Below, piece by piece: positions 10,115 to 10,475 of a stretch of 64,000 bases of DNA; the first letter of the stretch is position 1; each line of letters starts with the position of its first letter. The notes under the pieces are model-generated. The model made no database searches and was not told where the DNA came from. It worked only from the letters and a program-made list of their open reading frames with translations. The translations under genes and the position numbers were made by a program. The DNA lies in the NCBI RefSeq assembly GCF_024502345.1, contig NZ_JALDNN010000001.1. One strand, given 5' to 3'. The DNA is from Escherichia coli. Lineage in GTDB: Bacteria; Pseudomonadota; Gammaproteobacteria; Enterobacterales; Enterobacteriaceae.

Positions 10115-10475
10115 GCCTGATGCGACGCTGGCGCGTCTTATCAGGCCTACGCAGGGGTAGAACCGTAGGTTGGATAAGGCGTTCACGCCGCATCCGACAG
10201 CCGTTGCCTGATGCGACGCTGGCGCGTCTTATCAGGCCTACGCAGGGGTAGAACCGTAGGTCGGATAAGGCATTCACGCCGCATCCGACAGCCGTTGCCT
10301 GATGCGACGCTGGTGCGTCTTATCAGGCCTACGCAGGGGTAGAACCGTAGGTCGGATAAGGCGTTCACGCCGCATCCGACAGCCGTTGCCTGATGCGACG
10401 CTGGTGCGTCTTATCAGGCCTACGCAGAGGTAGAACCGTAGGTCGGATAAGGCGTTTACGCCGCATCCGACACGC
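10115..10475. repeat. BIME cluster: four tandem 91-bp units each built from two inverted REP palindromes
   Basis: Unit starts at 10115, 10206, 10297 and 10388, near-identical; each contains gcctgatgcgacgctggcgcgtcttatcaggcctac and gtaggtcggataaggcgttcacgccgcatccgaca. Confidence 0.85.

Follow-up and report, generated by a model that had tools for sequence, protein, structure and literature searches.

The closest described counterparts of the element analyzed here are the BIME-2, which in the Gilson/Bachellier scheme, as relayed by Ton-Hoang et al. (2012), join z2 to y REPs, inversely oriented, across a short linker and form tandem copies in numbers that differ by locus and, at one locus, by strain. 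Copy-number polymorphism, gyrase binding, targeting by IS621 and effects on mRNA have all been described for BIME-2 arrays. As a class, BIME-2 are enriched for gyrase cleavage, mainly at their Y REPs and independently of transcription (Sutormin et al. 2019), and REPs are known to contain IS621 targets (Choi 2003; Durrant 2024). BIME-1 (the IHF-binding RIB or RIP elements) are likewise pairs of REPs in inverted orientation located at the 3' end of a gene, but they join Z1 to Y through a long L linker with an IHF site and are present as a single copy (Ton-Hoang 2012). For the REP-associated transposase TnpA-REP, binding and cleavage in vitro have been reported to require both the GTAG tetranucleotide and a mismatch in the REP stem (Ton-Hoang 2012).

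A further point of reference is REP325, a BIME-2 array of 5.8 units with a 100-bp period that lies between yjdM and yjdN in K-12, and on which the Rfam RF02564 (naRNA4) model was built. According to Harris et al. (2026), REP325 stabilizes the upstream yjdM mRNA, leaves the downstream yjdN transcript some 8-10-fold lower, partly through Rho, and is itself expressed as a ladder of truncated RNAs spaced by its hairpins. The same authors stress the dependence of these effects on context and find no general effect of terminal REPs on half-life.

The array described in this work belongs to the dedD 3' untranslated region, within a 64,000-nucleotide stretch of Escherichia coli DNA (hereafter the window, whose first letter is position 1). 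We hold with high confidence that it is a BIME-2 whose Z2 and Y REPs have been amplified to four 91-bp units, and that the allele with four units is most likely close to neutral. Neither the type of element nor its polymorphism or activities go beyond textbook knowledge, and the K-12 version of the locus already appears in lists of BIME-2.

Organization of the array and identity of its REPs

Tandem Repeats Finder (TRF) delimits the array at a period of 91, with 4.0 copies, 97% matches, no indels and a score of 678, and a separate repeat search of the window yields the same 91-bp spacing from unit start to unit start. The first-pass annotation had placed four near-identical 91-bp units at 10115, 10206, 10297 and 10388; these turn out to be the exact starts of the four Z2 REPs, and its reading of each unit as two opposed REP palindromes holds as well, with a Z2 REP and an inverted Y REP matched in all four (Table 1). 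Each unit runs from a Z2 REP through a 14-nt head-to-head linker (GCAGGGGTAGAACC) to an inverted Y REP, after which a tail-to-tail linker of 7 nt (AGCCGTT) closes the unit, and the succession is repeated four times. Allowing for the differences between units, the first part is a 36-nt palindrome, GCCTGATGCGACGCTGG[C/T]GCGTCTTATCAGGCCTAC, the second the 14-nt linker GCAG[G/A]GGTAGAACC, the third the inverted palindrome GTAGGT[C/T]GGATAAGGC[G/A]TT[C/T]ACGCCGCATCCGAC, and the fourth the 7-nt linker already given.

The eight palindromes of the array measure 34-36 nt and every one of them bears GTAG or CTAC. The Z2 copies agree letter for letter with the published Z2 REP GCCTGATGCGACGCTGGCGCGTCTTATCAGGCCTACG (Durrant 2024), and the Y copies show three departures from the published sequence TGCCGGATGCGGCGTAAACGCCTTATCCGGCCTAC, of which two form a compensating pair in the stem. 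No match to the Z2 or the Y pattern arose in 100 shuffles of the window, and a looser REP pattern located no additional REPs anywhere in it. An inverted-repeat search with a 9-nt seed reported none in the array, because the REP stems are interrupted before they reach the length of the seed; the hairpins are plainly visible in the folds. The palindromes therefore display the defining attributes of REPs: imperfect palindromes of 30-40 nt, GTAG 5' of the stem foot, agreement with a family consensus, extragenic location and high copy number. With regard to the latter, an 801-bp query containing the array gave at least 123,509 matches distributed over 5,425 genomes, the median being at least 25 per genome.

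As in BIME-2 generally, Z2 and Y alternate here in inverse orientation across a short head-to-head linker, the units are in tandem and strain-variable in number, and the whole is extragenic and placed at the 3' end of a gene. Nothing essential separates the array from this class; it differs in having four units where K-12 has one and in its locus-specific linkers (14 nt and 7 nt), which the classification allows. The likeness to REP325 is also close, since both arrays lie between tandem genes and present the same Y and Z2 hairpins in identical order along the sense strand of the preceding gene. REP325, however, has a period of 100 bp instead of 91, a tail-to-tail linker of 13 nt instead of 7, a different head-to-head linker sequence and about six units (5.8) instead of four, and it lies inside the yjdMN operon, whereas the array of the window is followed by a conserved predicted terminator and an independent promoter.

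Other descriptions of the feature were considered and rejected. A CRISPR-like or otherwise spaced array is at odds with units that abut and enclose no unique spacers; a BIME-1 is at odds with a Z2 partner, a 14-nt linker and a unit repeated four times; and an artefact of assembly is at odds with the recovery of the same four-unit array in independent complete genomes of several lineages. The label given by the first-pass annotation can be refined to the BIME-2 subtype, the K-12 counterpart being already catalogued.

Table 1. Features of the dedD-cvpA region in window coordinates.
Feature	Position	Strand	Basis
dedD (cell division protein DedD)	9443..10105	+	RefSeq; stop TAA 10103-10105
Four overlapping ORFs, repeat by-products	span 9467..10498	-	ORF listing
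BIME-2 array, four tandem 91-bp units	10113..10472	+	TRF, REP matches, RNA fold
Z2-type REP, unit 1, GCCTGATGCGACGCTGGCGCGTCTTATCAGGCCTAC	10115..10150	+	pattern match, 0-1 mismatch across the four copies
Z2-type REPs, units 2-4	10206-10241, 10297-10332, 10388-10423	+	pattern match
Inverted Y-type REP, unit 1, 5' GTAG on plus strand, GTAGGTTGGATAAGGCGTTCACGCCGCATCCGAC	10165..10198	+	
Inverted Y-type REPs, units 2-4	10256-10289, 10347-10380, 10438-10471	+	pattern match
By-product ORFs	10120-10251, 10211-10342, 10302-10433, 10393-10500	+	ORF listing
Y-to-Z2 tail-to-tail module, Rfam RF02564 naRNA4	10168..10238	+	above gathering score
Two further naRNA4 modules	10259-10329, 10350-10420	+	on the dedD sense strand
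Intrinsic-terminator-like hairpin and T-tract	10507..10546	+	fold, conservation
PurR operator ACGCAAACGTTTTCTT, cvpA-purF-ubiX promoter	10565..10580	+	published motif match
Likely -10 hexamer TAGAAT	10588-10593	+	read from sequence, inferred
cvpA CDS, first gene of the downstream PurR-regulated operon	10637..11125	+	RefSeq

A conserved terminator-like hairpin downstream of the array

Gene annotation was taken from RefSeq record NZ_CP109924.1 (O125ac:H10 strain C 236-04A), which is identical to the window from its position 1580467 and in which the gene order is folC, dedD, cvpA, purF, ubiX. The first REP stem begins 9 nt past the dedD stop codon. Beyond the last unit there is a predicted terminator, in agreement with the one that had been noticed at 10508-10540, and consisting of a 12-pair stem (10507-10536) followed by TTTATTGATG; the fold has an energy of -18 kcal/mol and a z of -5.9. 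The PurR-controlled cvpA promoter that had been proposed to follow the array is likewise supported, the sequence ACGCAAACGTTTTCTT being the reverse complement of the PurR motif AAGAAAACGTTTGCGT published for cvpA-purF-ubiX (Cho 2011, Table 1).

The terminator-like hairpin is present in every E. coli allele examined, including the one that lacks the array altogether, and the spacing of hairpin and T-tract relative to the PurR box is constant from Escherichia to Yersinia, Serratia and Pantoea. A scan of one genome per species for exact matches to the 20-mer around the PurR box returned at least 120 loci, mostly from Enterobacterales, and dedD is found upstream in 107 of the 120 loci listed. Across 83 Enterobacterales sequences, 80% of the cells in the terminator stem are paired, as against 75% in shuffles and 38-58% in slid controls, and its covariation score of 0.215 (0.135 in shuffles) was equaled by none of 500 shuffles; the changes seen in the stem are of a kind that keeps pairing. 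This order-wide conservation, with its constant spacing, establishes the predicted terminator as ancient on comparative grounds, and the REPs would be later insertions between it and the dedD stop codon.

For K-12, the Term-seq data tabulated by Adams (2021) have no 3' end on this strand anywhere from cvpA to folC, and the feature table of NC_000913 contains no repeat feature in the dedD-cvpA spacer.

Open reading frames generated by the repeat

The array had been credited with three overlapping phantom ORFs on the minus strand that share a peptide, and this is what we find. The ORFs at 9467-10186, 9990-10277 and 10183-10368 have GTG starts and the peptide MNALS[N/D]LRFYPCVGLIRR, with N in the first of them and D in the other two. 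A fourth minus-strand ORF (10274-10498) contains the MNALS peptide internally, and the plus strand offers four more ORFs, overlooked by the first-pass annotation, with the peptide MRRW[R/C]VLSGLRRGRTVG.

Frames of 35-95 codons, and one of 239, which stay open on both strands and share their peptides might in principle be taken for small protein genes, but we regard this as scarcely conceivable. The ORFs take their periodicity from the DNA, and their repetition merely follows that of the underlying sequence. They begin at GTG codons within REP stems and overlap one another on both strands, and the 239-aa ORF is an antisense reading through dedD. The differences between units preserve the pairing of the hairpins and not any reading frame, and the ORFs disappear or change as the number of units changes. 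RefSeq annotates no array ORF in this or in any other strain inspected, no Pfam family is matched, the four array-ORF sequences that were searched for have no exact match among the roughly 15 billion proteins of a sequence collection, and neither dedD nor cvpA has an entry in the tables of small genes compiled for O157:H7 by Hücker (2017). As a matter of annotation hygiene, neither these repeated ORFs on both strands nor the three Rfam naRNA4 matches discussed below should be read as genes.

RNA structure of the array and matches to the naRNA4 model

Folded as a 461-nt RNA, the region of the array forms one hairpin per REP, with a z of -9.8 relative to shuffles. The Z2 hairpin is the more stable (-21.4 kcal/mol, z = -5.5), and the Y hairpin (-16.7 kcal/mol) includes a 2x2 internal loop. 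The stems of the Y REPs retain the 5' GTAG and an AA/GC internal mismatch, which are the features on which TnpA-REP depends in vitro. On the plus strand of the array G outnumbers C (116 to 102) and structure is extensive, and this strand should therefore be a poor Rho loading site by composition.

The array also contains three plus-strand matches to the naRNA4 model, which reach 79.5, 77.8 and 73.5 bits where the gathering score is 59.5. Coming as they do from the transcribed strand, and given the report that naRNA4 from REP325 condenses DNA and the nucleoid together with HU (Qian et al. 2015), these matches raise the question of whether three functional small RNAs of the naRNA4 kind are encoded in the array and cooperate with HU in chromosome organization. 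Several observations make this very improbable. The number of matches is always that of units minus one: alleles of five units give four, alleles of four give three, and the one-unit allele of K-12 and the empty allele give none. The model hence detects the BIME-2 junction and not a specific gene; any Y-to-Z2 junction of this kind is recognized by it, and another K-12 BIME also scores. The scores obtained here, of 73-80 bits, are well below those of REP325 proper (95-111 bits), six nucleotides of the linker being absent, and the modules have no dedicated promoter. Moreover, Harris et al. (2026), whose authors include the senior author of the original study, observed neither nucleoid compaction nor REP-REP contacts attributable to REP325 or naRNA4.

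Unit number across strains and history of the array

The suggestion that copy number may vary at this locus proved correct: a comparison of strains yields alleles of 0 to 5 units (Table 2). A set of 5,426 complete E. coli genomes was searched twice, and each search was sampled systematically at 60 rows; removal of two records common to both samples left about 117 chromosomes. The number of units was obtained from the span between the flanks, with representative alleles checked by sequence.

Table 2. Alleles of the array in about 117 E. coli chromosomes; the shares reflect the composition of the database and not natural frequencies.
Allele	Chromosomes	Share	Examples
0 units	3	~3%	S1-JOR-02-A
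1 unit	73	~62%	K-12 MG1655
2 units	1	~1%	AHM8C212RI
3 units	16	~14%	ST131, some O157:H7
4 units	14	~12%	this strain, most O157:H7, IHE3034, APEC O1:K1:H7
5 units	3	~3%	LSC52, GF3-3
Internally deleted (decayed) forms	6	~5%	KOr019, CUVET19-1396
Interrupted by IS621	1	~1%	B25FEP

The relationships among individual units speak of change at different time scales. Two O157:H7 strains differ by one in-register unit, and the number must therefore change on short time scales. Units 2 and 3 of the window have identical counterparts at the same positions in O157:H7 F6321 and in GF3-3, which implies that this type of array has been inherited or transferred as a block. In LSC52 and AHM8C, on the other hand, the closest relative of a unit is its neighbor, a pattern that points to local duplication, and the arrays of IHE3034 and ST131 are more diverged. 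E. albertii carries two units, so the element probably predates the split between this species and E. coli. In the empty allele exactly 91 bp are missing between the near-repeats TTGCCTGATGC and TTGCCCGATGC; judged from its sequence, this arrangement fits a secondary deletion, the alternative being that the empty spacer represents the ancestral state.

A plausible history of the locus can be assembled from these elements. A REP doublet would have entered the dedD-cvpA spacer before E. coli and E. albertii diverged, and the number of units would have drifted thereafter between 0 and 5. The mechanism of this drift is likely to be in-register unequal recombination or replication slippage between the 91-bp repeats, to which TnpA-REP may have contributed further, although recombination or slippage and the transposase are indistinguishable from the letters alone.

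For practical purposes, short-read assembly can collapse a tandem repeat of this kind, whose 91-bp units vary in number within a serotype, and this calls for caution in typing and in assembly.

Gyrase and IS621 at the locus

At the level of DNA, the one-unit allele of K-12 has been shown to be a mapped gyrase site. Table DS3 of Sutormin et al. (2019) has the entry 'BIMEs2 2437498-2437581, 83 bp, cvpA-dedD' for K-12 W3110, and the number of gyrase cleavage sites at this element is 0 with ciprofloxacin, 2 with rifampicin and ciprofloxacin, 1 with microcin B17 and 0 with oxolinic acid. By extension from the class, the Y REPs of the array would be sites of transcription-independent gyrase binding and cleavage, and the gyrase load would be expected to rise with the number of Y REPs.

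Each Z2 REP, in turn, would constitute a target site for IS621. The natural IS621 target ATCAGGCCTAC (Durrant 2024) ends every Z2 REP of the array, and the four sites present in the window all fall within it. In this respect the array conforms exactly to the IS621 targets described in REPs (Choi 2003; Durrant 2024), the difference being that the window has no IS621 in the array and only the target, in four tandem copies. The use of a Z2 REP at this very locus by IS621 is nonetheless demonstrated by strain B25FEP, in which the insertion sequence lies in a Z2 REP, exactly at the CT core of ATCAGGCCT|AC.

Possible consequences of unit number for gene expression

On the dedD transcript, each REP is expected to fold into a stable hairpin. 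Such hairpins could block 3'-to-5' exonucleases and attenuate read-through from folC-dedD, as in the case of REP325, and the first of them, by virtue of its closeness to the dedD stop codon, would fall within the distance reported to hinder the termination of translation. REPs at 15 nt or less from a stop codon are reported in Liang (2015) to stall terminating ribosomes; since the gap here is of 9 nt, the first hairpin lies inside this limit in all alleles of one unit or more.

The first-pass annotation had suggested that copy number could affect the stability of the dedD mRNA 3' end and read-through into cvpA-purF, and by analogy with REP325 this idea is plausible. In its full form it makes the number of units a regulatory dial, with additional hairpins protecting the folC-dedD mRNA from 3' exonucleases and attenuating transcription by degrees, so that the expression of DedD and of cvpA-purF would differ between strains of four or five units and those of one. 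The array does carry the modules of REP325 on the sense strand, REP325 with its six units has the marked effects on yjdM and yjdN outlined above, together with its hairpin-spaced ladder, and the number of units differs by lineage, from one in K-12 to three in ST131 and three or four in O157:H7. The setting of the two arrays is, however, not the same. Downstream of the array, every allele has a strong predicted terminator whose conservation, with covariation, extends to the whole order, and cvpA has a PurR-controlled promoter of its own. The insulation of cvpA should thus be independent of the array, and the array is probably also dispensable for ending dedD transcripts, given that the predicted terminator lies downstream in all alleles and that about 3% of the sampled strains have no array at all. 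To this may be added the context dependence emphasized in the REP325 study, with its finding of no general half-life effect for terminal REPs, and the fact that K-12 Term-seq maps no 3' ends in the dedD-cvpA spacer (Adams 2021). On balance we deem a regulatory dial unlikely. Because the predicted terminator is conserved in all alleles and cvpA is served by its own promoter, copy number is most likely near-neutral, and so is the four-unit state of the window. Even so, the alleles of 0 to 5 units and the one interrupted by IS621, all with identical flanks, make up a natural series in which REP number can be tested as a quantitative dial in a 3' UTR.

Other palindromes in the dedD-cvpA spacer

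Comparison of spacer sequences conveys the impression that the 3' UTR of dedD is more than the home of a single element: it appears to be a safe site that has been colonized repeatedly. Were this so, unrelated palindromic families would have colonized the interval between the dedD stop codon and the terminator, and been amplified there, independently within the Enterobacteriaceae. A broader proposal, in which the spacer is a tolerated landing site for unrelated palindromes and, at the same time, the number of units (0 to 5) tunes the level of DedD, local supercoiling or the cvpA-purF promoter, seems to us quite improbable as a whole.

Palindromes of the GGGAGAGGG type, unrelated to the REPs of E. 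coli, occur in the same spacer in 14 of the 107 species representatives among the loci listed. They are found in Enterobacter, Lelliottia, Kluyvera and Pseudocitrobacter, and REPs of the E. coli type in Escherichia. In Pseudocitrobacter faecalis the GGGAGAGGG-type palindromes make up a tandem array of about six units.

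Different repeat families and an insertion sequence in the dedD-cvpA spacer

The spacer between dedD and cvpA has accommodated repeats of more than one kind. In 14 of the 107 species representatives, which carry dedD upstream of the cvpA PurR box, the orthologous spacer holds a different family of palindromic repeats, CCCTCTCCC...GGGAGAGGG, and GGTGAGGGG flanks these palindromes of non-E. coli type. Pseudocitrobacter faecalis presents them as a tandem array of about six units in a spacer of 546 bp. The presence of a distinct palindrome family at the orthologous position argues for independent colonisation of the dedD 3' UTR by different repeat families.

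In E. coli B25FEP, the single BIME-2 unit of the spacer is interrupted by IS621, whose insertion point coincides exactly with the CT core of ATCAGGCCT|AC, within the Z2 REP, and both junctions of the element carry CT. A genome search with the dedD-cvpA flanks matched 5,434 places in 5,425 records; hence, up to nine genomes may have these flanks more than 800 bp apart, B25FEP being the one case inspected. As regards K-12, published tables enter the element of the cvpA-dedD spacer as BIME-2, whereas the NC_000913.3 feature table returned no repeat feature for this spacer (positions 2265-2522 of comparison locus L002).

A conserved hairpin upstream of cvpA

The hairpin and T-tract preceding the PurR operator (window 10507-10580 with the operator; alignment A1) are near-identical in sequence across the Enterobacteriaceae, and their distance to the operator is constant. 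In more distant genera, changes that preserve pairing are seen. Such conservation is unusually strong for a terminator, and we infer that the A+T-rich tail may have a second role at the cvpA promoter, where it would serve the weak -35 region.

Repeats, RNA families and open reading frames

The BIME between phnE and phnD of K-12 MG1655 (1250-1330 of comparison locus L134, + strand) matches the Rfam naRNA4 family with 69.1 bits; the family thus detects BIME-2 junctions generally, beyond REP325 alone. In the REP cluster adjacent to fabB, GTAG(G)TCGGA occurs three times and a hybrid REP, GTAGGTCGGATAAGACGCGCCAGCGTCGCATCCGAC, comes next; 25 bp of this hybrid are repeated 2.3 times (TRF, window 738-795). 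Downstream of these repeats lies the terminator-like GGGAACCCGATGGTTCCCTTTTT. The minus-strand ORF that is antisense to dedD, without annotation anywhere, is open by chance. The short duplication within dedD falls in the proline/lysine-rich linker, with its PKPEPKP-type repeats.

Location of features in the window and in comparison loci
Feature	Location	Strand	Remarks
Irregular REP cluster	window 700-845		directly 3' of fabB stop codon (696-698)
239-aa ORF	window 9467-10186	-	starts in first Y REP; antisense to most of dedD
24-bp tandem duplication	window 9748-9795		within dedD; 2.0 copies, 79% matches
nuoG RNA (Rfam RF01748)	window 41185-41227	+	nuoF-nuoG spacer; 50.3 bits, gathering score 33
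CCCTCTCCC...GGGAGAGGG palindromes	L054 (P. faecalis), spacer upstream of 1555-1574		also in L072, L084, L086, L108 and L016
IS621	L131 (E. coli B25FEP, NZ_CM177971.1) 2619-4155		annotated as IS110-like IS621 family transposase
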